Below, piece by piece: positions 42,697-57,734 of a DNA stretch of 64,000 nucleotides. The position numbers and the translations under genes are program-made. Source of the stretch: Spirochaetia bacterium (GTDB lineage: Bacteria; Spirochaetota; Spirochaetia; SZUA-6; Bin103); assembly GCA_965203905.1 (NCBI GenBank), contig CBDBDQ010000005.1, positions 7,680,001-7,744,000 of the forward strand, in the 5' to 3' direction. Under the pieces are notes generated by a model. That model searched no databases. It was not told the origin of the DNA and was given only the letters and a program-made list of their open reading frames with translations. Within the stretch, counting starts at the first letter, position 1. Each line of letters begins with the position of its first letter.

Positions 42697-42931
42697 TTGA
42701 TCCGGAGCGTATCCGACCCGATCTGGTCGATCAAGTCCGCCAGGGCGTGGCGCCTCGCACAGGGCGCGCGGCCCAACCGCCCAACCTCTTGCATGCCTCG
42801 AGCAAACGGAGTAGTTGTGTGCTATCCAGTCGTGACCATCAAGACCAACGGAACTCAGCGGCGCGCCCGCGACATCAGCACAATGGTGATACCTGCGATC
42901 CGGCAAAAGGGCCCATTGGCCGATTCGGAAC

Positions 42932-42982
42932 GTGTCCCAAGGCCCCTTCGACACGGCAAATGAGATCGTCAGTAGGGATAGG
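42932..42982 (+). repeat. Second copy of the ~50-bp repeat
   Basis: Few mismatches to 38953-39002. Confidence 0.75.
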
Positions 42983-43014
42983 CGTGTAAGCACACATACG
43001 CTTATGATGGATGT

Positions 43015-43239
43015 ATGAGTACAACTCGATGGTCGCTGGTGGTCTCCGAAGCAACTGACCGCGCCCTGCGTACCTTCCTTGCGAGTCGGGGACTGAAGAA
43101 AGGGCATCTCTCGCAGTTTGTTGAGGACGCCGTGAGAGAAAAGCTGTTCGATCTGACCGTCGCAGAAGTCAAAGAGCGAAACGCGGGACAAACCGATGCT
43201 GTCATGCAGGCCGTCGAGGAGGCTCTCGAGCGAGCCTGA
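43015..43239 (+). CDS. Ribbon-helix-helix antitoxin
   Basis: RWSLVVS..TDRALR.FL....KKG.LSQFVEDAV; TATGAT just before the ATG. Confidence 0.75.
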   Translation: MSTTRWSLVVSEATDRALRTFLASRGLKKGHLSQFVEDAVREKLFDLTVAEVKERNAGQTDAVMQAVEEALERA

Positions 43240-43242
43240 GGC

Positions 43243-43652
43243 GTGCGTGTTGTGCTCGACACCGGAATCCTCGTTGCCGCTCTGATCACACGGACACACC
43301 CCCAGACCAACTGTACCAGCTGTGGCGCAAGCGACGGTTCACGCTGATCACGTCCGAGCCGCAGTTAAGCGAGTTCCGGCGCGTCACTCGTTACCCGAAG
43401 CTGCGTCGGTTTCTGAAGGCTCACGAAGCGGGGACCCTCCTGCGCGGGGTGCGTGCGCGAGCTGTTGTTGTCCCAGGGCTGCCACAGATCGATCTTGTCG
43501 ACGACCCCGACGACAATCTCGTGCTTGCCACCGCTCTCGCCGGCGAGGCTGACTATCTGGTCACCGGAGATCGGCGTCACCTACTGCACCTGAAGAAGGT
43601 GCAGCACACGAGGATCTTGACGGCACGTGAGCTCACAGAGTTGCTCAACTGA
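43243..43652 (+). CDS. PIN-family toxin; frameshift near 43295
   Basis: MRVVLDTGIL, DPDDNLVLATA, ADYLVTGD. Confidence 0.8.
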
Positions 43653-43860
43653 CCGTTCCCGACGAACGGGACCGGCCGATGGCCATACCAAGTTCTCGAT
43701 CCCATCCCTGGTGTTGCGTTGCGCGCCCCGAGCCGAAGTTCGTTGCAGGATAGATGGCACGGAGTGTGGGCGGTGGGTGTTCCGTTCCGAGCGTGTCCCT
43801 GGAGCGGAACGCGGGAACGGCGGAACGGTGGGCGGATGAGAGCGAGTAGGCCGTTGGGAG

Positions 43861-44802
43861 TCAGGCCGGCAGGTGCCAGCCGGCGGGACCGCGGACGGCG
43901 AGACCGCGTTGCTGGAGAGATTGGAGGGCGAGACCGAGACGAGCGTTGTTGACGCGCAGGCGTTGGCGGAGGGCGGTCCTGGAGAGCGGCTGGCCGGCGG
44001 TGCGAAGAGCGGCGCGCACGGCCTCGGTGAGCGGGGGCGGCGGAGCGGCGGCACCGTCGACGATCAGCGAGAGGGGCTGGTGGGCGCCGCCTGAGAGGCG
44101 CAGCAGGAGGGGATCGGGAGCGGGAGCGGCGCGGTGTTCGACGGTGAGTTGGAGCCGGTCGTCGGCCCGCCGCACGAGGTAGCATGCGGAGTCGGTCCAG
44201 GCATGCAGATCGGAGGAGCCGCGCAGGGACTGGCCGAGATTGCGGCGCGAACGCTTGGCCATGTGGTGGACGAGGACGACCGCGAGCTGATGGCGGCGAT
44301 TGATGGCGCGCAGAAAGCCGAGCAGGGAAGAAATGTCTGAAGCGCTGTTTTCGTCGAGGGAATGAAGGCGGACCAGGGGGTCCAGCAACAGCAGCGCCGG
44401 GCGGATGCGTTGCACGGTGTGGTCGAGAGCGAGCCGGTCGCGCTCGGTGTCGAGGCGCAGCCGGTCGGCCGTGACGACGTGCAGGTCGAGGCGGGACAGG
44501 TCGAGGCCGCGGTGGCGGCACAGGTGGGCGACGCGGTCGCGGACGCGCGGCAGAGCATCCTCGGCAAGATAGACCAGGGCGGGTCCGGTGGCGTCGACCG
44601 GGAACCGCCCGAGGGCGGGAGTGCCGGACGCGACCGAGACGGCGAGATCAAGACCGAGCCATGACTTGCCAACCTTGGGGCTGCCGCCAATCACGCCGAC
44701 AGCGGCGGTGGTCCAGAGGTCGCGCACCAGCCACTGGGGAGTGTCTGGTTGGGGATCGATGGCATGGACCGGAACGGTGGGCAGGGGACCGGTCATGGCC
44801 AC
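43861..44802 (-). CDS. RecA/RepA-like AAA_25 ATPase (helicase-like) with probable C-terminal HTH
   Basis: WLVRDLW, GSPKVGKS, YLAED, LLDPL, VHH..K, RGSS. Confidence 0.8.
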   Translation of the reverse strand: MAMTGPLPTVPVHAIDPQPDTPQWLVRDLWTTAAVGVIGGSPKVGKSWLGLDLAVSVASGTPALGRFPVDATGPALVYLAEDALPRVRDRVAHLCRHRGLDLSRLDLHVVTADRLRLDTERDRLALDHTVQRIRPALLLLDPLVRLHSLDENSASDISSLLGFLRAINRRHQLAVVLVHHMAKRSRRNLGQSLRGSSDLHAWTDSACYLVRRADDRLQLTVEHRAAPAPDPLLLRLSGGAHQPLSLIVDGAAAPPPPLTEAVRAALRTAGQPLSRTALRQRLRVNNARLGLALQSLQQRGLAVRGPAGWHLPA

Positions 44803-45596
44803 AGCGACTTGCGAGCGGCGATCACGTCGCCGGCGCTGACGGTGGAGTGGGACGACTTGGCGGCGCGTTGCAGGGCGGCCAGGGCGAGGCGGTCGATGGC
44901 GCGCAGGTTGCCGCGGCTCATTTCGAAGATGGTTTGCTGAGCGTCGCCGTCGAAGGGATTGGTGCGCGCGCCGGCGAGGGTGCAGCGATGTTCGAGGTAG
45001 GCGCAGGTTTCGTCACGGGACAGGAGGCGCAACTCGGCGTAATGCGCGAGGCGGTGCGCGATGGCGGCTTGCTCGGGACGCCGCAGGAGCTGTCTGAGAG
45101 CAGGCTGGCCGGCGAGCACGAGGGACACGACGAGGCGACTGTCCATTTCGAAGTTCGTGAGGACGCGCAACATGGCCAACGATTCGGGGCGCAGGTCATG
45201 TGCTTCGTCGAGCAGGATAACCGGGCGCATGCCGTCGCTGGCGGTGTGATCGAAAGCGCCCTGCAACTTGCGCACGAGGGCGGGATAGATGCCGGTGGGA
45301 GAGAGGCCGCAGGCGACGGCGATCTCCTTGCACAGGTCACGCTTGGAGAGGCCGGTGACCTTGACGTAGTGGACGCTGAAGCGCACCTCCGGGAGAGCGG
45401 CGACGAGCATGCGCAAGGCGACGGTCTTGCCGGTGCCGGCGGGAGCGATGAGTGCGGCGCTCATGCGCTCCTGGACGGCCTCGGTGAGAGCGGCGGCGAC
45501 CTGGGCCTGAGGTTCGAGCGGGAAGCACTCGCGCACCTGCAACTCGCGGGTAAAGGGGGTCTTGCGAAAGCCCAGTGTGCTGAGGTCGTGGCTCAT
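44793..45596 (-). CDS. ExeA/GspA-like AAA+ ATPase (transposition regulator-like)
   Basis: GFRKTPF, APAGTGKT, LLDEAH, LAGQPAL, SRGNLRAID. Confidence 0.85.
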   Translation of the reverse strand: MSHDLSTLGFRKTPFTRELQVRECFPLEPQAQVAAALTEAVQERMSAALIAPAGTGKTVALRMLVAALPEVRFSVHYVKVTGLSKRDLCKEIAVACGLSPTGIYPALVRKLQGAFDHTASDGMRPVILLDEAHDLRPESLAMLRVLTNFEMDSRLVVSLVLAGQPALRQLLRRPEQAAIAHRLAHYAELRLLSRDETCAYLEHRCTLAGARTNPFDGDAQQTIFEMSRGNLRAIDRLALAALQRAAKSSHSTVSAGDVIAARKSLWP

Positions 45597-46990
45597 GGCT
45601 GCTGCTCCTGGTCGTGGCGGTCGTCGTGCGGGTCGCTATAGCCGCCGTCGGGATCGACCAGCGGGCGGGTGTCGTTGGCGTAGGCGATGCCGGCCGCGGT
45701 GGCGGGGAGTTCCTCGCCGTCGTCGTCGTCAGTCGGTTGCGGCGCGCTGCCGGAGCCGCGCGGTGAGGTCGCGTTGGCATGCGGGTCCACCTCGGCCAGT
45801 TCGATCATGCGGCCCTGGTGCAGCACCCACAGGCGCCCGTCGAGCACGTGGCGCGCCACCTCGACCCAACTGCGGGCGCTGCGGAGCGGTGCTTCCCACA
45901 ACCGACCGCCGGCCTTGATGACGTGATCGTTGGAGACCTTGTGCAGGGCGCGCACCACGAAGCGGCGGTACAGGTCGGCGTCGTCGGTCGGGAAGCGCAG
46001 CTCGCGTCCCTGCTCCCAGCGCTGGCGCGGGGTGATCTCCTTGCCCAGAGTCTCGTGCGGGGTGTCGTTGTAGCGGTTCAGGAAGTGGCGCAGGCGCAGT
46101 GTGAGTGCCTGGCAGGCGGGGTCCACGTCGGCGGCGCCGTCGAGGGCACGCAGCGCCTAGTCGTAAGCGGTGCGGTGGAAGCGCTCGACGGCGCCGTGGC
46201 CCTCGGGATACCTGCTGGCGCCGTGGATCAGCAAGGCGCCCAGGCCGCCCTGGACCACCGCCAGGGTGTCCTTGGAGATGAAGCCCGGTCCCTTGTCCAG
46301 GTAGTACAGGTCCGCGCTACCGTGCCGCATGACCGCTTCGTGGAGGCCGCGCAGGAACAGTTCGCTGGACTCCGCGGTGCCCACCACCACCTCGAGGCCG
46401 TAGCGGGTGGCATCGTCGAGGAAGAACAGCGCGACCCGGCGCAGCCGCGCCGCGCCGGCGCGGAAGTGCTTGCCGTCGGCGAGCACGCACTGCATACGCT
46501 CGGCGTAGCGCCAGCGCCGGGTGTCGCCGTCACGCTTGTGCGGTCGCACGCGCGTCGGCAAACCCATCCGCCGGCAGGCGCGCCACACCGTGGTGCGATC
46601 GATCTTCAGGTCGACCGGGATGATGCCGCGCTCGCGCGCCCGGCGCACCATCTCCGGTACCGAGGCGCGCGCATCACGCTGCTTCTCGGTGCGCACAAAG
46701 GTGACCAGCTTGGAGCTCAGCGCCAGGGAAGTCGCGATGCGGGTGCGCGGCTGCGGCTCCAGGGCAGCCAGGCCGCCGGCGGCCCAGGCAGCACGCCAGC
46801 GTTGCAAGGTGCGTACGCTGACCCGCAGCGGGCGACCGTTCAGGTCCACGCGGTCGCGACCGGCAACGTGCCGTACCGCGGCTCCCGCGGGGTATCCGCG
46901 CAACACCAGGGCCTCCACCTCGGCGACTGCCAGGGAGCGCACCAGCGCGGTCGCCGAGGCCGGTAACGGGGGACGCGTCGAGTCATTCAT
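45593..46990 (-). pseudogene. Mu/rve-type DDE transposase (465 codons) interrupted by an in-frame TAG at 46157-46159
   Basis: HTH SVRTLQRW, LADG, LDDATR, YLDKGPGF, GHGAVERFHRT; the same frame continues to YNDTPHETL..TP. Confidence 0.85.
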
Positions 46991-47844
46991 GCGCCTACCG
47001 TAGCGCCGCCCGAGGCTGCTCGAACGGGCGCTTTCGTGGCCGGCGGCGCCCGTCCCCGAGGGCTGCCGGCCATCTCCTTCTCCCGCGCTTCGGAACGACC
47101 CGTCGCGGTAACGATCCAGCTCTTGCCGGCCTGCTCCCAGCGCGCCACCAGCCGCGGGCGCGGTGGCCCCCACAGATCGCTGACCGCACCCGCCGCTCCC
47201 ATGCGGTCCCCCAGCGTGGCGCTCACCGCCAGCGCCACCAGCACCGCCACGATCGCGGCTCCGCGGCTCTGCCAACTGCGCTCCCAACTGCGTGCTCCCG
47301 CGAGCACCGTCATGGTCGCCACTCCCAGCCGCGTCGCGATCTGCTCTCGCTCCCGCTCCTCCAGTTCCGGGCTCACCCCGGTCAGCCGTCCGGCCATCTC
47401 CAACCGCCGCTCCTGGGTACGCCGGCATGGCGTACTCGACGACCGCCACCAGTGCAACTCCGATGGCCACCCCTTCTCCTGCTCCGCATCCTGCGCTGCC
47501 CTGAACAGCGTCGCCTGCCACTGCGGTTGGCTGCTGTCAGCGTCGAGCAACAGCTCGCCGTCTGTGCTGTACCGCACCACAGCCACCCGTCCGTACGGGT
47601 AATGTCCCGGCGGATACAGCGTGTAGCGCCGCCCCCCATGCTCCCGGCACCCCACCACCGCTATCGGGTAGCACGGTCCGCTCTTGCGCTCTCGGTAATG
47701 ATCGACGAAGATGGCACACGTCTGCTCCCCCGTGGCGTAGACGCATCGTGTCGGCAGCACGGCGTGTAAGGCTCCGTCCTTATCCGTCTCGTAGCTCGTC
47801 GTCGCGTACGGGAGCGCGTGTGCCTCGGTTCCACCCTCGGACAC
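46987..47844 (-). CDS. Cys/His-containing hypothetical protein, first gene of the transposon operon (weakly DUF6431-like)
   Basis: C-x8-C...CREH...YTLYPPGHYPYGR; ATGA overlap with the transposase start. Confidence 0.6.
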   Translation of the reverse strand: MSEGGTEAHALPYATTSYETDKDGALHAVLPTRCVYATGEQTCAIFVDHYRERKSGPCYPIAVVGCREHGGRRYTLYPPGHYPYGRVAVVRYSTDGELLLDADSSQPQWQATLFRAAQDAEQEKGWPSELHWWRSSSTPCRRTQERRLEMAGRLTGVSPELEEREREQIATRLGVATMTVLAGARSWERSWQSRGAAIVAVLVALAVSATLGDRMGAAGAVSDLWGPPRPRLVARWEQAGKSWIVTATGRSEAREKEMAGSPRGRAPPATKAPVRAASGGATVGA

Positions 47845-47895
47845 TCGCTGCCTCTCGTGTGCCTCGACTCGCGGTCACCCGCCCGCCGAGGCTGC

Positions 47896-47933
47896 AAAAA
47901 AGTGAAGCCCGCAGCATTCACCTGCTGCGGGCT
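47896..47933 (-). terminator. Hairpin plus T6; insertion target of the IS110
   Basis: Minus strand AGCCCGCAGCA-GGTGAA-TGCTGCGGGCT TCAC TTTTTT. Confidence 0.7.
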
Positions 47934-47949
47934 CCTTAGAAACACATAG

Positions 47950-49335
47950 TCAGGCGGCGTGAGGTACGAGATCGAAGCCGAGAGAACGGGCTTGGTTGCG
48001 CAGGTTGCGCTCACGGCGTTTGCGATCCTGGCAGTGCTGTTGCGAGAGCAGGTCGTCGTCGTAGAGGACATGGTGCGTGACGAGGTGGTAGATGATGCGA
48101 GCCATCTTGTGGGCGGTGGCGGTGATTGCCTGTGGAGTGCCGAGGCGGGCACGCTTGCGGCGAAAGTGATCTCCGAGCGAGGAGTGGCTCCGATACAGCG
48201 TTTGGGTTGCGATGCGGAGCGCCTGAGCGGCGCGATTGGTGCCGGGTCCGGTCTTCGAACTGATGATCTTGCCGCCGGTGATCTTGTTGTGGGGGCAGAG
48301 ATTCAACCAGGAAGCAAAGTGCGCGGCGTCGGGAAAGCGTGACAGATCGGCGCCGATTTCGGTAAACAAGGTAAGGGCAGTGCTCTCGCCGATGCCGGGA
48401 ATAAGGGTCAGGTCGGTACCGAACAGGCGCGTGAGGTGGCGGCTCAGCACGAACCGTTCAGACGTACTCGGGGAGCTGGGAGCCTCACCTTCGCCGGGAA
48501 CCGCGCTGCGGTCGGCGCCGGAGGGAACGTCAGGCGGCACATTCGGGTCCGTCTCCAGGGTGCCGATCATGGTCTTGATCTGCTGATCGCAGGTATCGAT
48601 GAGCTGCTGGTAGTGCGCATAGGTCAGCCGCGCTTGCTGCAGGGTAAACAGATGCTCGGGACGCCAGTCACCTTGCAGTGCCTTGATCAACGTCTCGCGG
48701 CTGGCTCTGATCCCGCGATGGGCCAGCGCGGCCAATCGTGCTGGAGCCCGTTCCCCGCCCAGGATGGCGTCGGTGATGGCCATGCCGGTCACCCCGGTCA
48801 GATCAGAGATCGCATGGTGCAAATGGATGTTCATCTGATCGTAGGATTTCTGCATATGCAGCACGCTCCGCGATGCCGCCTTCACCAGGGTGTCGCGATG
48901 GCGCAGCAGCGTGCGCAGCGCGCACACCTCGTCGGGCGGGCGGAAGGAGCCGCTCAGCAGTCCCACCGAATGTAGATGACGCAGCCATTCGCAGTCGGCT
49001 ACGTCGCTCTTGCGACCGGGCACCGAGCGCACATGACGGGCGTTGACCAGTACCACGTCGAAGCCACGAGCTTCCAGGATCTGGAGCACGGGTATCCAGT
49101 AGACGCCGGTAGACTCCATAGCGACCGTGGTTACCCGGCACTCGCTGAGCCAGTCGGCCAACGCGTGCAGGTCGCTGGTGAACGTGGGGAAATTACGGAT
49201 CGGCACCGCGGCGCGATCTTCGCGTACTGCGGCGTACACCGCGGTGGCGCCTATATCCACACCTGCGGCGTCGGGATGGACCTGGTTCGGCTGCGCCGGG
49301 CGTTTGCCGTTGCGTCGCCTCTTACGTCGTGCCAT
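47950..49335 (-). CDS. IS110 family recombinase/transposase
   Basis: DEDD motifs GVDIG, AMESTGVYW, KSDVAD; Tnp20 domain IPGIG, EIG.DLSRF, A.AHKMARIIY. Confidence 0.93.
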   Translation of the reverse strand: MARRKRRRNGKRPAQPNQVHPDAAGVDIGATAVYAAVREDRAAVPIRNFPTFTSDLHALADWLSECRVTTVAMESTGVYWIPVLQILEARGFDVVLVNARHVRSVPGRKSDVADCEWLRHLHSVGLLSGSFRPPDEVCALRTLLRHRDTLVKAASRSVLHMQKSYDQMNIHLHHAISDLTGVTGMAITDAILGGERAPARLAALAHRGIRASRETLIKALQGDWRPEHLFTLQQARLTYAHYQQLIDTCDQQIKTMIGTLETDPNVPPDVPSGADRSAVPGEGEAPSSPSTSERFVLSRHLTRLFGTDLTLIPGIGESTALTLFTEIGADLSRFPDAAHFASWLNLCPHNKITGGKIISSKTGPGTNRAAQALRIATQTLYRSHSSLGDHFRRKRARLGTPQAITATAHKMARIIYHLVTHHVLYDDDLLSQQHCQDRKRRERNLRNQARSLGFDLVPHAA

Positions 49336-49602
49336 GAAAAGCCTCCACTATGCACCAAGTGCAGCGGCCGAGGCGTGAACAAGAGGCATTCTCCTTACCG
49401 GGATGGCCGTCGCCGACAGTGCCGGTGCCGACCTCACCAATGACTACGCCACCTGCCTCGGGACCAAGCTTCACAACGGGTTCGCCACAGCGGGCGGTCA
49501 CACCAATGTTCGCGCGGCCTACTTTCGCGCCCCACTCGGTGAAATATCGCCCCCAGTATATCTCGCTCCCGTTTCTTCCATGATCACTCCGGACCGTCAG
49601 GC
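49336..49602 (-). ncRNA. Candidate IS110 bridge RNA
   Basis: Contains TGTGAAGC (target match) and TAAGGAG (donor match); 5' hairpin CCGGGCC-TGAC-GGTCCGG. Confidence 0.7.
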
Positions 49603-49910
49603 CCGGTAGGATAGCTTCACACTTTACGCCCCCGTCGCTTCTCCGCCTACGCCATCGTCACCGCAACCGGTACTCCCTCACCCCGCCCTTGGGCGCGCAA
49701 CGCAATACCTGGCCTTACACCAGGCGGCGACTTGGCCCAACTCGAACGCCCCGTGCATCGGCTTCGCTGACCGGCCAGGTCACGCCCATCCTGCGCACGC
49801 CGCTCAGAAAGTGAGCCATTTGCCGCTTAGAAATTGACCCACCCCCGGCAGGCGAACCCTCCGGGTGATAGTTTGGTGTTGCTGAACATCAAACTGAACC
49901 GGAGAGAAGG

Positions 49911-51374
49911 ATGCTGGGGATGGATCGCGTATACGTTATCAGACACAAGTGGCACCAAGAAGGGCTGTCGATCCGCCAGATAGCCCGTGACCTGGAGATA
50001 AGCCGGAACACGGTGCGCAAGTACATCGACGATGCCGGCGGGCCGCGGCAGCCGGCGCGGTCGAAGCGGGCGCGGCCGGTGCTGGAGAAGGTACACGAGC
50101 GGATCGACGAGATCCTGGAGGAGTGGAGTACGCGCACCACCGACAAGCAGCGCGTCACCGGGACGCTGGTGCATCGCCAACTCCGCGAGGAGGGGTACGA
50201 GGTGGGCAGCACGACGGTGCGCTCCTACTTGGCGGAGCGGCGCCGGAAGCGGCAGGAAGTGTTTGTGCCGCTGATCTGGCGTCCCGGCGACGCGGCGCAG
50301 GTGGACTTCTTCGAGGTCACCGTCGAGGTCGCGGGGGAGCGGCAGAAGGCGTGGTTGTTCGTGGTGCACCTGATGTACTCGGGGCGCGACTTCGCGTGGC
50401 TGTACGAGCGCTGCAACCAGATCGCGTTTCTGGACGGCCATGTGCGCGCCTTCGAGCACTTCGGCGGGGTGTCGGTGCGCTGCATCTACGACAATCTCAA
50501 GGCGGCGGTGAAACGGAGGCTGGGGGTGGAACGGGAACTGAGCGCTCGGTTCCTGGCGTTGTGCTCGCACTACCTGTTCGAGCCGTGCTTCGCGCGCCCA
50601 GGCGAGGGGCATGACAAGGGCGGGGTGGAAGCGCGCGGCAAGAACGTGCGCCTGCAGCACCTGACGCCGATTCCCGGTGGCCCATCGTTGGATGCGATCG
50701 CGACCGAACTGCTGGAGCACCTGGACGCGGCCTGCGACACGCGCGCTGACCAGGACGGTCGCACCGTGGCACAGCGTTTCAGCGAGGAGCGCCCCTTGTT
50801 GCGCCCGCTGCCGCAGCGATCATTCGAGGCCCGCCAGGTCGAGCCGGTGGCGGTGAGCCGCCAGGCGCTGGTGCGGGTGGACGGCGCGCGCTACTCGGTG
50901 CCCAGTCACTGGAGCGGCAGCCAGGCGACCGCCTACGTGGGGGTGGCGGACATCATCCTGGAGTGGCGCCAGGAACGGATCACGGTCGCCAAGCAGCCGC
51001 GCGGCACGCGCGCGGTCCAGTATCGGCACTATCTGGACGAGTTGGCGAAGAAACCGCAGGCGGTGCGCCAGGTGGCACCCGAGCTGATGGAGGAGCTTGG
51101 TACTCCCTACGTGCGGCTGTGGAAGCTGCTGTCTTCCCGCTACGGCGAGCTGGATGCCGCGCGGGTCGTCGCCAAGCTGGTCGGCGCCATCGTCGACCAT
51201 GGCGAGCAACGGATCAGTGAGATCCTCGAGCAGATACTCGCCGCGCCACCGCCCGTGGCGACCGAGGACAACCCGCCGCCGGCCACGGTGCCGGTGCCGG
51301 TCGCCCTGCAGCGCTATCAGGTGGAGTCGACTCCTGCATCGGCCTACAACGTCCTGATGGTGAGGGAGGACTGA
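49911..51374 (+). CDS. istA: IS21 transposase IstA
   Basis: [42 protein letters not shown]. Confidence 0.93.
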
Positions 51375-52152: not shown

Positions 52153-52456
52153 TCCGTGGGGGCGGTGTGATGCCCGTGCGCACTGCATATCTGCATATCG
52201 ACGGCCGCCGCCAAGCGAGGTCGCTCTCAGCGGCCCTCCAAGGCCCCGCCGCGAGCCAAGGTGGAACTCCTACACCCCCGTGTTCTGCATAATCATGCAA
52301 CCAAAAACGAACTTATCCACATTTCCACAGGCACTCTCGACCCCTCCCCCAGACCCCCTCCCCATTTACCGCCGCCTCCGCTATAGTTCCTCTGCACTGC
52401 CGGGGTGGGTCAATTCCCGACCGGCATTCTGGCTCAATTCTCGAGCGGCGCGCGCA

Positions 52457-52617
52457 CATCCACAGCCGGCGCTCGTCGACCTGGTCGGCCGCGTTCCGGG
52501 CGCGCCTCCGGAACTGCCGCCGGCGCATGCACACCCGTGGCGCCACGGGTGGAGGGCCCGGTGCATCCGGCGTGACACCCCGGGAGGTGCCGGTCGGCCG
52601 CACATCCATGGGTCGGC
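52457..52617 (+). repeat. Non-coding repeat, left copy (begins at 49766-49791, split by IS21)
   Basis: Joined flanks match the reverse complement of 57892-57969 almost exactly; weaker similarity continues to 57738. Confidence 0.85.
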
Positions 52618-52770
52618 ACGGCGGTGGCGAAGCCAAAGGAGGCCGGCACCGGGGCGATCGAGCGGGAAGACATCTGGGGCCGATCCGTCGCACCTCGCCT
52701 TGCTGACCTGGCTGGACGGCCGCCCGGGCGCAGGCGCGTGCACACCTGCGCTGCCGCAGGCGGGCCTTCC

Positions 52771-53701
52771 TTAAACCGACCCGGCGGCTCCGGCACCGAG
52801 GCGACCACCGCCCCTCAACCTCGGATCAAGCAGGTCCCGCAGGGCGTCGCCGAACATGTTTAGACTGTAAACGGTAATAGTCAGGCAAAGACCCGGCCAG
52901 AGAGCCAGGTGTGGCGCCTGCTCCATGTATTTACGCCCTTCCCGGCTGAGCAGAGCTCCCCACTCAGCAATCTGGATTGGCAGACCGAATCCGAGGAAGC
53001 TCAGAGAAGCTATACTCAGGATTACGCCTCCGATGTTGATGCTGAATATGATGATTACGACAGGAATAATATTGGGCACGACATGTCGCACAAATATTCT
53101 CCATCTTGAGCTACCAATCGCCTCCGCCGCCTGAACATACACGTTCTCCTTTATGCCAATAACGGCGCCTCTGACTATTCTTGAGCCGCCGATGCCTCCG
53201 GCTATCCCCAGGACCAGTATCATCTGTGGCACACCCCGCCCCACCAGCGACATTATGGTTAACAACAGGAGCAGTCCCGGGAAACACATCCAGGCATCGA
53301 CCAATCTCTGCACAGCCAGGTCCGATTTACCACCAAGGAATCCTGAAGTGCCACCTATCAGGGTAGCGACGACAACATTAACACCGGTCGCGGCCAGACC
53401 GACAAGTAACGAAATACGAGCACCGTAGATAATGCGGCTCAAGAAGTCTCGCCCCAGCTGGTCGGTACCCAGCAGATACTGGGCTGATGAGCCCCTGCAG
53501 CATGTCGTACAGGTGCATTTCATCATATGGATAAGGAGCCAGAACATCGGCAAAGATAGCGACAAAAATCAATATCAATACAATAATCCCGCAGGCAGTA
53601 CCCAGTGGCTTCTCCTTCCACATCCTGGTAAAGAAATCAGCCACCGCGTTGCGTCTCTTTGGCTCGCTTACTGTTGATGGTATCCTTGTGATATCACTCA
53701 T
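52771..53701 (-). CDS. Opp/Dpp-type permease C; frameshift near 53495
   Basis: KPLGTACG, LGTDQLGRD, GDALRDLLDPR. Confidence 0.88.
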
Positions 53702-53719
53702 AATCCCGATTTTCCTCCT

Positions 53720-54718
53720 TTATCTATAACCGACCCTGGGGTCTATATAGGGATAAATCAGGTCGATCATTAGATTGGCCCCCATAACCACGACGGCGAA
53801 AAAGAGATTTACCCCGGAGACCACCGGGTAGTCTCTGCCTTCGAGGGCAACCACCATGAGACGACCCAACCCCGGAAGGTTGAATATGTTCTCCATGATG
53901 ACCGAACCACCTATCAGGATCGGCAACTGCAGGCCTATCAGGGTAACTATCGGGATGAGGGCATTTTTGACGGCGTGTCTGATTATGATTACCCGCTCCT
54001 TGAGGCCCTTAGACCAGGCGGTCCTGATATAGTCCTGCCTTAAGACCTCCAGCATCATGGTGCGCGTCAGCCGCATTGTTATCGCAGCCATGCCCGTCCC
54101 CAGAATCACGCTGGGAATGATGAACACCCCCAGATTCCCCAGCGGGTCTTCCGTGAAAGGAATCGGTTCCATTGGTGGCGTCCAGCCCCACCAGAGTGCC
54201 GGGTAGAGCATGACCATCAGTGCCAGCCAGAAGTTGGGAGTTGCCATGCCGATGATGGCGATGGAGCGCCCCAGGTAGTCGGCGGCGGTATCCTGGCGAA
54301 TCGCCGAGTAGATGCCGACTGGCAGGGCTATCAGCAGCCCGATTACGATTGCCATGAAACCAAGCTCAATGGTGATCGGCAATCTACCGAATATACTGTC
54401 CTCTACCGCCTCCTGGCGGTGATGCAGTGACCGGCCAAGGGTGCCCTGGAGGAGACCGTTGTAGCGGGACTCACCGGTAACCCAGTCAGGGGTCGGCAAC
54501 ACTCCTATCCAGCGTCCATACTGCACGTGCACAGGCACGTCCAATCCCAGCATATGCTCCAGCGCTTCACGGTCTACCTCACGACCCGTGACATCCTTAC
54601 CCAACATTGCGTCTATTGTATCGCCGGGGATGAAGCGGACGGAGAGAAAGACCAGGGTGCTCAATATAAACAAGGTGGGGACTATCAGCAATAACCGCCT
54701 GATAATATAGGCTCTCAT
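53720..54718 (-). CDS. Opp/Dpp-type permease B
   Basis: MRAYIIRRLL, QDYIRTAWSKGL, RDYP, DPRV. Confidence 0.92.
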   Translation of the reverse strand: MRAYIIRRLLLIVPTLFILSTLVFLSVRFIPGDTIDAMLGKDVTGREVDREALEHMLGLDVPVHVQYGRWIGVLPTPDWVTGESRYNGLLQGTLGRSLHHRQEAVEDSIFGRLPITIELGFMAIVIGLLIALPVGIYSAIRQDTAADYLGRSIAIIGMATPNFWLALMVMLYPALWWGWTPPMEPIPFTEDPLGNLGVFIIPSVILGTGMAAITMRLTRTMMLEVLRQDYIRTAWSKGLKERVIIIRHAVKNALIPIVTLIGLQLPILIGGSVIMENIFNLPGLGRLMVVALEGRDYPVVSGVNLFFAVVVMGANLMIDLIYPYIDPRVGYR

Positions 54719-54879
54719 GTCACACTACTCCTTGTCATTGCGGCGAAGAACCTGCCCCGGAATGGATCCGGGGCCGCAATCCAGAGTAATTTCAAATGGT
54801 GCGTTTTCTGTATTCGGAACCGGGAGGCTGTCGCCTGCAGGCGCGCCTCCCGGTTCCCTTTTTCCCCTGAGATCAGCCG

Positions 54880-56662
54880 CTAATGACCCATTGCTTCCTT
54901 CAGCTCACTATCAATCCAGAGGAAGGTAAAGAGGGTATGCACTTCAAAGCCGCCCAAGCGATTTTCTCCGTTATAGCCTATGAGCCAGGGCTGGGCCAAA
55001 TGAAACACTGGACTCTTTGGACCCCATATCTGGAAGTGGTTCTCTATCGCGTACATATCTGCCTCTGCAATCAGCCTCTGCTGCTCCTCAATGGTAGGAG
55101 CGGCTAGGGCGGCTTCAATGATGGCGTCCAACTCAGGCCACTGGTGTCCGCCGCGGTTCCACTGTGCGTTCGAGTGATACCGGCCTACAAACATGGCAGG
55201 GTCATAAGCGGCGCCCGCAATGGCACTGATCATGCCTTCATAATTACGCGAGAATAGCCTCTCGTGATATTCGGGGTTGTCCAGTGCATCAATCTCAACA
55301 TCGACGCCAATCTCAGCCCAGTAGGAGGCAGCTATTTCTGCATATTCTAAGGTTGCCCAAGCCCCGTAAGTCAATGAGGTCTTGAATCTAGTGTCGTCGG
55401 CGCCGCGCGGATATCCAGCCGCATCAAGGAGCTTCTCGGCTGCTTCCGGGTCATACCTGTAGTATTGCTTGACCTCTTCGGGCCACTCTTCAAATGGGAT
55501 GTAATACCCTTTATTCGCTATCCGTCCCATAGGTGTCGCATCTGCCTGACCCTTCCAGAGCGTGGCCGCAATGGTCTCGTTGTCCAGCGCCATCTGCATT
55601 GCGCGGACCACGTTGATGTCGTTAAAGGGCGGCACGCGATGGTTAGGAGCAAAAGAATCACTCGACCGAGACCAAAGCGTGTGCACCGCGATTTCGGGGT
55701 TGGTCCGCTGCAGGCTCATTACCGAGTTCATATCAGTAACCCACTCTTTGAGATCAATCTTGCCTGAGCGTAGTGCTGCCATGGTTGTTGCTTCCTCTGG
55801 AATAATCAGGACCCTGTGCTCGTCGACGTATGGCAAGCGGTTCTGCGGGTATTTTGGGTCGAAGCCCCAGTAGTCAGGATTCTTGGTATAGGTCCTAGAG
55901 CTGCCCAACACCCACTCAGTCAGCATAAAGGGCCCGGTGCCGACCAGGTTCCTCCAGTCCATATCGACGCCATGTTGCTCGATTACCTCGGGGGGCATTA
56001 TGTAAGCAAAGTCGTCGAGGAGGATAAGCCCCAGCGCAGGGAGGTATGGCTTCGCCAGCTTAATAACAACCGTCGATTTGTCGGTGGCCGTTACCGATTC
56101 CCATGGTATTGCGATGAGTGCGGCGGCGGGACCAAAGGCGCTAGGTCCTGCTTCGGAGAACTTGCCCAGACCCAACATACGGTGAAAGCTGTATTCGACA
56201 TCATCGGCGGTCATCTCCCGACCGTTCATCGGCGCCTTATTATGCCATTGAACGCCCTTGCGGATGTGGAATGTATAGGTGAGGCCGTCCGGGGAAACAT
56301 CCCACTTTTCAGCCAGCCTCCCTGTCACGAAAGACACAGGGAGGAACGATTTTAAAGTCATGTACGTCTCTATCTACTCCCCAGTTGCCGATACCAAGCT
56401 TCTCTACGACGCCCGAGATGGTTAGGGACGAGTACCCGACATAGGGGTCAGCAGGGAAATCCTGAGGACTTGGTACGGCCTTGGTTATTGTCCCGCCATA
56501 CTGTGGCGCCGTTACCATCATGCCGGTGGTCGGGTCGAGCACCATTTCCTTCTCGGCGGCGGACGCCGGCTCCTCCTCGCTGGCAGCGCCGGCCCACAGG
56601 CCGGTTGCGGTCAGGTTGAGGACCAACGCAACCGCGAAGGTCCTTGCAAGAAATATCTTCAT
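54880..56662 (-). CDS. Family-5 SBP; frameshift near 56340-56370
   Basis: Signal peptide and PQYGGT in ORF 56309-56662; LAEKW, TADDV, VGTGPF in ORF 54880-56361. Confidence 0.88.
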
Positions 56663-57312
56663 CGTTTCTTCCTTGAATGTTATTTCGAGAGTATTGCATT
56701 GCGGGTTGCCGCTCCGGCTACTCTGACGCCCGCAACGCGGGCGCGCCCGCCAAGGCGGGCCACCGGTCTGAGTCGATTTGTGACGCGCGCAGCGTGTGAC
56801 TCATCCGGGTTCACCCCGGGCTCACGCCGCGCGCGCCCAGGGCTCTTTGAGTATCATTCGAGCCTCCTTCTTCTCTAGATCTACGTCGGGATCTGCGTTA
56901 CAACGCCACGCGTGGCGGTGGTCTGAGCAGCAGTGAGTCTGAATGGCCGCCAACGCAGGCGGTGGGTTTTGCGCGCAGTTAGTAGCAGGCGGGGATCCGG
57001 CACCGTTGCAGTCGACCGGAAGGGTGCGGGCGGTCTTAATGCCGGTTCGGCGATGGACCGAGCCGGCACCACCGATAGCTGCAGCGGTGGTGAAGGCGAC
57101 GGTGTGCGCGGGGGCACGTACGCGGCGATCAGACGGAACGGTTAATTGTTGCTCTAATAAAGAATTGCCCGCGGGGGGGAGGGGGGGGGGGGGGGGATGC
57201 ACCGGTCGCTTCACAGCGAACCGGTCACTGCGCTGCCTATCATCATGGCGCGTCATCGGCATCCGTCGCCCCAAGCCAGACATGGTAGCGTGGGCGCGAC
57301 CACCCTGTCAAC
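56663..57312 (-). repeat. Conserved long 5' leader of SBP gene, copy 2
   Basis: Colinear with 7205-7736, including poly-C tract, AT-rich patch and GC hairpin. Confidence 0.85.
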
Positions 57313-57734
57313 GACTCGGACGTCACCGACGTCACCGAATATGACCGGCCACCGGCCACTGCGCTGCCTGTCGTCATCGCGCGTCATCATCGATCCGTCG
57401 AACCCCAGGCGAGGCAAGCATGCTGTGGACGCGACCACCCTGTCAACGACTCCGAGGTCACCGAACGTCATCGCCAACCGACCACTGCGCTGACTGTCAT
57501 GATGGCGCTCCATCCGCGTCTGATCAACCCGAATCACCATCTTCCGCGGGCGACTCAGAAAAGTCAACGGCGATTCTAGCCTCGTGCACCTTGCCACGCC
57601 CGGCTCTGCGATCGGCTGAACTTGCGCGCCTCACCCCTAACCAGTCACTGCGCTGGCGGTCGTCGTGACGCGTCATCTGCATTCGCCGAACCCCTAACGG
57701 TGCTGTCTCTCGCGAGCGCGGCCACCCTGTCAAC
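57226..57734 (-). repeat. Array of four ~87-bp units (GTTGAC...ATG...CAGCGCAGTG) with unique spacers
   Basis: Plus-strand CACTGCGCTG at 57226, 57357, 57483, 57646; GTCAAC ending at 57312, 57447, 57568, 57734. Confidence 0.85.

Follow-up and report, generated by a model that had tools for sequence, protein, structure and literature searches.

What brought an insertion sequence into one arm of a terminator-like palindrome inside another transposon: the hairpin as such, or a short word that the element's own leader carries? The locus that raises this question lies in a 64,000-nt stretch of a Spirochaetia bacterium genome (GenBank assembly GCA_965203905.1, contig CBDBDQ010000005.1, positions 7,680,001 to 7,744,000 of the forward strand), here called the window, whose own coordinates are used below. 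It holds an intact, ordinary-looking IS110-family insertion sequence on the minus strand, and the leader of this element contains two guide words, one for the element's end and one for the occupied site. An earlier note, made from the letters alone, had described an IS110 element with a readable bridge RNA aimed at the palindrome. Our analysis confirms the observation and supports part of the interpretation: very probably, an intact IS110 element with a bridge-RNA-type leader hit the hairpin through a word of 7-8 nt.

Borders, core and recombinase of the element

The element is defined by the following features.

47932..49616, minus strand: IS110-family insertion sequence including both AG core copies (empty paralogous sites, junction reading, contig joint of run X2)
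47934..49614, minus strand: element body, with the left core at 49616-49615 and the right core at 47933-47932
47950..49335, minus strand: recombinase gene, 461 amino acids, intact (open-reading-frame list, Pfam, NCBIfam, invariant residues)
47932..47938, minus strand: right end TAAGG plus core AG, the left donor (direct reading; ends of five-copy relatives)
49615..49621, minus strand: flank sequence made up of the left target TGTGA and core AG (same letters as the leader 7-mer at 49475-49469; present in three empty sites)

The length of 1681 bp plus a repeated core follows from two sources. Three paralogous sites of the surrounding host transposon in the same genome are free of the insert and read GTAAAGTGTGAAGCCCGCAGCAGGTAAATGCTGCGGGCTTCAC, then TTTT, and a contig of metagenome run X2 (with 3 ambiguous letters) joins 47930 to 49614 and skips 1683 bases. 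The empty target that the earlier note had deduced is thus real. At the occupied site, the left junction joins GTAAAGTGTGAAG to CTATCC (in a shorter quotation, GTGTGAAG to CTATCC), and the right junction joins TTTCTAAGGAG to CCCGCAGCAGGTGAATGCTGCGGGCTTCAC, followed by TTTTTT (also quoted as TCTAAGGAG joined to CCCGCAGC). As in other members of the IS110 group, terminal inverted repeats are absent, and the core is single in the empty site and borders the insert on both sides when the site is occupied; here, the empty sites have one AG(C) and the occupied site has AG(C) on either side. The non-coding ends are very unequal, with a 5' leader of 279 nt (49614-49336) versus 16 nt at the 3' end (47949-47934).

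All strings quoted previously were found in place (TGTGAAGC at 49475-49468, TAAGGAG at 49397-49391, CTGACT at 47953-47948 and TATCCT at 49613-49608), and the three-letter core AGC had to be shortened. A relative with 76% identity is present in five copies in the same genome; its right ends stop at ...GGAG, and ...TAAGGAG is followed by C, C, G, A and G. Because the following base varies among the five copies, we conclude that the core is the dinucleotide AG and that target and element share the C fortuitously.

Assignment to the IS110 family was borne out by two Pfam domains (DEDD_Tnp_IS110, PF01548, 4e-21; Transposase_20, PF02371, 4.4e-12) and by the NCBIfam model NF033542 'IS110 family RNA-guided transposase' (251.5 bits, cut-off 140). 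Residues D27, E74, D111, D114 and S342 were invariant in the alignment with relatives (8 in one count, seven in the other). Judged by their order, they may be equivalent to D11, E60, D102, D105 and S241 of IS621. The element is single-copy in the genome. A broken and rearranged copy, 85% identical to it, lies at G000:C5:7137340-7138625 (L002, L009) and has the right end TCAGGAG. In plasmid records, the relatives were all distant (65-67% identity, covering 29% of the query).

Guide words and framing helices of the leader

Two 7-mers of the leader repeat the sequences at the borders of the element.

49469..49475, minus strand: left target guide UGUGAAG, the AG core preceded by 5 nt of flank (covariation with the flank)
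49391..49397, minus strand: left donor guide UAAGGAG, equal to the right end TAAGG plus AG (identity of leader and right-end 7-mers)

Both guides, and their order of target then donor, had been proposed in the earlier note, and in homologues the words change together with flank and end. Where the leader of this element has CCCGU-UGUGAAG-CUUGG, that of the 76%-identical relative has CCCGU-UGUCAAG-CUUGG, and the flanks differ at the same base (G to C). The five identical copies of this relative (L003-L007; G000:C5 347273, 2657026, 4979660, 5154564 and 6652562) all adjoin TGTCAAG and all carry the guide UGUCAAG. A third type, with five copies in one assembly (L016-L020), combines UCAAGAG in the leader with the flank (C)TCAAGAG, and UCAGGAG with the right end TCAGGAG.

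We extended this comparison to 12 genome loci and 80 metagenome loci, which, with the window copy and one copy per multi-copy relative, amounted to 90 loci. The donor word, defined as a leader 7-mer ending in AG after CC[CT][GA]N, recurred exactly just past the stop codon in 57/90 loci; the controls gave 5 (reverse complement) and 3 (reversed). The distinct donor words numbered 22. Of the 50 loci that had a candidate target word, 40 repeated it 100-175 nt upstream with no more than one mismatch, compared with a mean of 5.4 (maximum 11) when words were exchanged among loci. Exact recurrence was seen in 30/50 loci (shuffled mean 1.3, maximum 4). The correspondence of the two 7-mers exceeds chance because homologues carry the words of their own flanks and ends at the same leader positions.

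The left 7-mer was also considered as a part of the element itself. This was rejected, since it is present in the empty sites and varies among copies of one type, which in G014 adjoin AGTAAAG, TGTAAAG and TGCAAAG. At two loci (L150 in G014 and L161 in G020), a right end is fused to another, 5'-truncated copy exactly behind its guide-coding 7-mer; guide-coding DNA therefore behaves as a target. Head-to-tail tandem copies, right end to left end, occur at L137 (G004) and L024. A full copy with 97% identity in run X3 has a different upstream flank, aligns through GTGTGAAG and reads C>G at guide position 49472; it speaks neither for nor against the guide-flank rule.

The two words lie in a common framework, which comprises these features.

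49462..49519, minus strand: target-binding module (closing helix GGCCG, 49519-49515, with UGGUC, 49466-49462; internal hairpin UGGUGU...ACCCG, 49505-49477)
49368..49461, minus strand: donor-binding module (long-range helix CCGAGGC..GUG, 49461-49450, with CAC GCCUCGG, 49377-49368; hairpin UGGUGA...UCCCG, 49439-49399)
49467..49468, minus strand: CU directly behind the target guide, matching left-end bases 1 and 2, handshake-like (homologue identity)
49508..49514, minus strand: CGCGAAC, on the 5' side of the target loop, where the family's right target guide would lie (family-wide complementarity)
49589..49606, minus strand: hairpin CCGGGCC-TGAC-GGTCCGG near the start of the left end (direct reading; hairpins of differing sequence at the same place in relatives, by eye)

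An anchored alignment of 34 non-redundant homologues (six of 40 having been dropped as near-duplicates or ambiguous) gave one plan for the modules: a closing helix, a 9-nt slot, a conserved hairpin UGGUGN...N'CCCG, one base, and the 7-nt guide. The closing-helix pairs of the target module are kept in 32-34 of the 34 homologues, with exchanges between G-C, A-U and G-U, and were recovered in the minimum-energy fold. The donor hairpin pairs are kept in 33-34 of them with compensatory change, and the closing pairs of the hairpins exchange C-G with U-A and A-U with G-C. The long-range donor helix appears in the fold and, by eye, in relatives of differing sequence. At the CU position, identity to left-end bases 1 and 2 was 0.97 and 0.84 of 32 homologues (z 7.9 and 7.6).

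We propose that the 279-nt leader would encode a bridge-RNA-type guide, with the target module followed by the donor module. In each module, the 7-nt word placed one base 3' of the conserved hairpin would have the same sense as the DNA that it reads: UGUGAAG would read the left flank and the AG core, and UAAGGAG the right end of the element and the AG core. By the rule established for IS621, both words would pair with the bottom strand, and the CU that follows the target word and equals the first left-end bases would resemble a handshake guide. Recombination at the AG core would then place the element in ...GTGTGA-AG-CCCGCAGC..., the left arm of the terminator-like palindrome. On this basis we infer that the leader is transcribed, that its RNA pairs as that of IS621 does and that the element is active.

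Several observations weigh against this proposal. RNA support was not found in the contigs of four runs; the sole RNA run (X20) contained only small and diverged parts of the coding region. The fold energy of the leader is not unusual (z -0.41), and an Rfam search of 47000-50500 at a permissive threshold gave no match. The guides, in the same sense and 3' of the internal hairpins, have the reverse of the guide order of IS621. CGCGAAC forms 3/6 pairs with the right flank CCCGCA, with a run of 0 from the core. A right donor guide was not found in three kinds of scan: complementarity and identity matrices (in which the sequences flanking both hairpins and following the donor guide were set against 12-25 positions of flank or end), a register scan and a whole-leader duplex search, the last of which gave scattered single-element matches of at least 8 pairs at varying places. 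Homologues had been picked with the help of the guide-flank match itself, and therefore only the controls make the match counts into tests.

A further point concerns run X5, which bears the same organism label as the best-matching run. One of its contigs, with flanks 100% identical to the window, connects 47934 directly with 49620, leaves out 1685 bases and has ...AAAGTG joined to GAGCCC...; it is 2 nt shorter than a precise empty site and may represent an imprecise loss or a variant host-transposon copy. The same run has pieces of the element at 100% identity. Together, the pieces and the bridging contig hint at a recent polymorphism and possibly at recent mobility. The bridged version would yield a longer perfect stem.

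The host transposon and the choice of the site

The surroundings of the element were delimited as follows.

43712..49707, minus strand: host transposon, 4.3 kb without the insert (inverted ends, duplication, paralogues, empty site)
47896..47935, minus strand: terminator-like hairpin rebuilt from the last bases of the element and the right arm, then a T-run (fold reading)

That the host is itself a transposon, as had been proposed, is supported by inverted ends of 17 bp (TGTTGCGTTGCGCGCCC, starting TGT, at 43712-43728 and 49691-49707) and a 5-bp CCTGG duplication. Three other copies with 88% identity, each with its own duplication, bring the number in the genome to four, and an uninterrupted empty site lies at C5:7027960-7028020. 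The genes of the host transposon, a weakly DDE-transposase-like gene, AAA_22 and AAA_25, are on the minus strand, in the same orientation as the IS110 element. This host copy is nested in another repeat, the parts of which (42926-43711 and 49705-49791) are contiguous at C5:7027207-7028073. Beside the nested elements, 52453-57500 has dense matches to 10-20 other places in the genome (72-99% identity) and is repeated, probably mobile DNA.

The palindrome lies ~75 nt inside the host end from which the host genes are read and is followed by a T-run; its uninterrupted stem is 15 bp long in the paralogues. To judge from position and form, it resembles a terminator facing inward, which would protect the host genes from outside transcription. 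Insertion left the hairpin mostly intact, in agreement with the earlier note: the right end of the element rebuilds 13 pairs, 9 of them G-C, with a loop of 6 and the tail ACTTTTTTGC, including the T-run.

The strongest competing explanation holds that the insertion is an off-target event. A preferred site would fit the left word and also have a right flank complementary to CGCGAAC, and the palindrome fits the left half only; we regard this as possible but rather doubtful. In the family as a whole, a 7-nt stretch within the 5' slot of the loop, ahead of the target hairpin, shows complementarity to the right flank in register from the core G (mean run 1.67 versus 0.63; mean pairs 2.94 versus 2.22; p 0.0002 or less, n=33). 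The earlier reading had identified no right-hand guide with confidence: for the donor side this stands, whereas on the target side a family-wide signal marks a guide position, which fits poorly in this copy. In favour of an off-target event are this poor fit and the genome itself, in which no site fits both guide positions perfectly and 5 do so with one mismatch. Half-matched substrates are reported as sufficient for IS621 (bioRxiv 10.64898/2026.08.31.748434). In close multi-copy relatives, however, right flanks also show little constraint and fit the right-guide positions little, beyond a frequent C at the first position, and weak reading of the right side may therefore be normal rather than a sign of off-target insertion. 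An off-target origin would in any case refine a word-guided insertion rather than exclude it. Among the five copies L003-L007, CATC is present in three right flanks and fits their 5'-slot word GCGAUGC.

Recognition of DNA hairpins as such, with the terminator palindrome as the true target and the 7-nt word as only a part of what is recognized, is a less likely explanation. It would amount to a structural gate like that of ISPpu10 for the stem-loop of the repetitive extragenic palindrome (REP). The reconstructed window site is a strong palindrome (z -5.8), and the insertion point lies in its left arm, which allows intrastrand pairing of the left target, a feature reported for ISPpu10 (bioRxiv 10.64898/2026.03.19.712850). 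Furthermore, GTCATYCTGAG-like words, which look like a widespread palindromic repeat and in one case are visibly within a palindrome, adjoin 10 of 40 more distant homologues whose left flank had been assigned (L026, L034, L035, L037, L041, L065, L066, L072, L075 and L102). Hairpin repeats are therefore common targets elsewhere in the family, in agreement with the REP targets in the literature (bioRxiv 10.64898/2026.03.19.712850).

The close clade argues otherwise. Only 2 of its 27 reconstructed sites (31 minus four nested insertions) fold unusually well, namely the window site and one other (z -7.6); over all of them, the median z is 0.07. The genome has three identical palindromes that are unoccupied, and the element is present once. 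We conclude that being 'aimed at a palindrome' or 'parasitising a transposon terminator', in the words of the earlier note, is not a property of the clade. The absence of a palindrome preference and the empty identical palindromes point to a hit driven by the word: the hairpin was probably occupied since its left arm holds the 7-8-nt word and not since hairpins are sought. TGTGAAG occurs in 194 copies in the genome.

Finally, it is very improbable that the leader is a mere 5' untranslated region whose words match flank and end by chance or shared ancestry while the recombinase reads DNA directly: the unremarkable fold, the lack of an Rfam match and the missing transcript support would suit this, but the words are not the same from element to element and vary in step with flank and end, far more often than in shuffled controls, the framing helices covary, and the protein family is one with experimentally shown RNA guidance (PMC11208160, PMC11208158).

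Likeness to known systems and meaning for the clade

In many respects the element resembles IS621 of E. coli. Both have a DEDD and a serine recombinase domain, a long left non-coding end upstream of the gene, a short right end without terminal inverted repeats, a 2-nt core at both junctions, and a target module followed by a donor module. Both also place the guide after a helix and a G-N linker, with two handshake-like bases after the 7-nt guide. The recombinase is larger here, with 461 amino acids compared with ~326 amino acids in IS621.

Differences concern the core and the order of the guides. The core is AG on the gene strand here and CT in IS621, as given in two reports (PMC11208160, PMC11208158), and AG is the reverse complement of CT. 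In the numbering of the IS621 RNA in the same reports (PMC11208160, PMC11208158), the left target guide (50-58) precedes the right target guide (77-80), and the left donor guide (123-130) precedes the right donor guide (157-165). Read on the other strand, the 3' guide of our element with its two bases matches the 7+2 layout of the IS621 right guide and handshake guide. The simplest reading of this comparison is a conserved RNA plan with a crossover site that would be inverted relative to the gene. We state that the layout differs from that of IS621 and do not claim that it is undescribed among published leaders.

The right donor guide, a feature of IS621, was not found here. Instead, the ends share a subterminal repeat of 6 bp.

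47938..47943, minus strand: repeat arm GTTTCT adjoining the left donor (reverse complement of AGAAAC)
49571..49576, minus strand: repeat arm AGAAAC in the leader (covariation with GTTTCT)

The two arms covary in 36/41 homologues (shuffled mean 17.7, maximum 27), for example as GTTCCT/AGGAAC, GTTCAT/ATGAAC, GTTGCT/AGCAAC, GTTACT/AGTAAC and GTTCCC/GGGAAC. According to Durrant et al., the subterminal repeats of the IS110 group are only 2-3 bp long (PMC11208160), compared with 6 bp in our element.

Promoters were a further point of comparison. The earlier note had proposed that circularization creates a sigma-70-like promoter, and CTGACT, a 17-nt spacer and TATCCT are indeed brought together when the ends are joined. 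The promoter appears weak, though, and not conserved in the family, unlike the IS621-type promoter that is rebuilt across joined ends. Its score of 8/12 is below the scan threshold; scores were 5 and 6 in the two nearest relatives and 5.9/12 on average in the family, with 1/34 reaching at least 9, although the promoter rules of the organism may differ. A sigma-70 scan of 47700-49800 detected no promoter. One further box is present in the leader.

49555..49560, minus strand: TATACT, -10-like box (enrichment of the box in homologues)

A TAnnnT box lies 48-85 nt upstream of the target guide in 24/34 homologues (11.3 expected), and its placement suggests TATACT as a possible internal start of the guide RNA.

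ISPpu10 of Pseudomonas putida shares with our element its membership of the IS110 group, a natural target in a GC-rich palindromic repeat and a left target able to pair within the strand. It differs in its CT core and its numerous insertions in a single repeat family, whereas we found a single insertion, three identical palindromes left empty and no hairpin preference in the clade. IS4321 and IS5075, of the IS1111 group, are IS110-family elements that insert at a fixed sequence in the inverted ends of Tn21-family transposons; they have the guide RNA in the right end, long subterminal repeats and recurrent hits on the terminal repeat itself. Like them, our element sits near the end of another transposon, but its site is a hairpin ~75 nt inside and is occupied once in four copies.

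Taken together, these comparisons allow a tentative suggestion, to which we give a limited chance. The clade may use a mirror-image bridge system in which modules like those of IS621 (9-nt 5' slot, hairpin, 7-nt 3' guide, two handshake bases) serve a crossover site read in the opposite polarity relative to the gene. The 3' guide would dominate targeting by reading the flank next to the RNA-coding end, and the 5' guides and the right donor side would be nearly unused. The right donor side may have been replaced by the GTTTCT/AGAAAC repeat, which could fold the joined ends or bind protein. If this were true, 7-8 nt of one guide would suffice for natural target choice.

For the annotation of this genome, the result is one more copy of an RNA-guided IS110 element, which lies in a transposon that in turn lies in another repeat. 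The element is of a known kind, and the features of its clade merit the attention of specialists. With empty sites, multi-copy relatives and ~90 homologues, it is a clean natural case in which guide words can be read straight from the sequence. Our findings suggest that not all leaders of the IS110 group follow the layout of IS621, as this clade departs from it in guide order, in the core and in how much the left and the right guides seem to count. This bears on the mining and programming of orthologues as genome-editing tools, and on the length of sequence that a natural bridge recombinase really reads.

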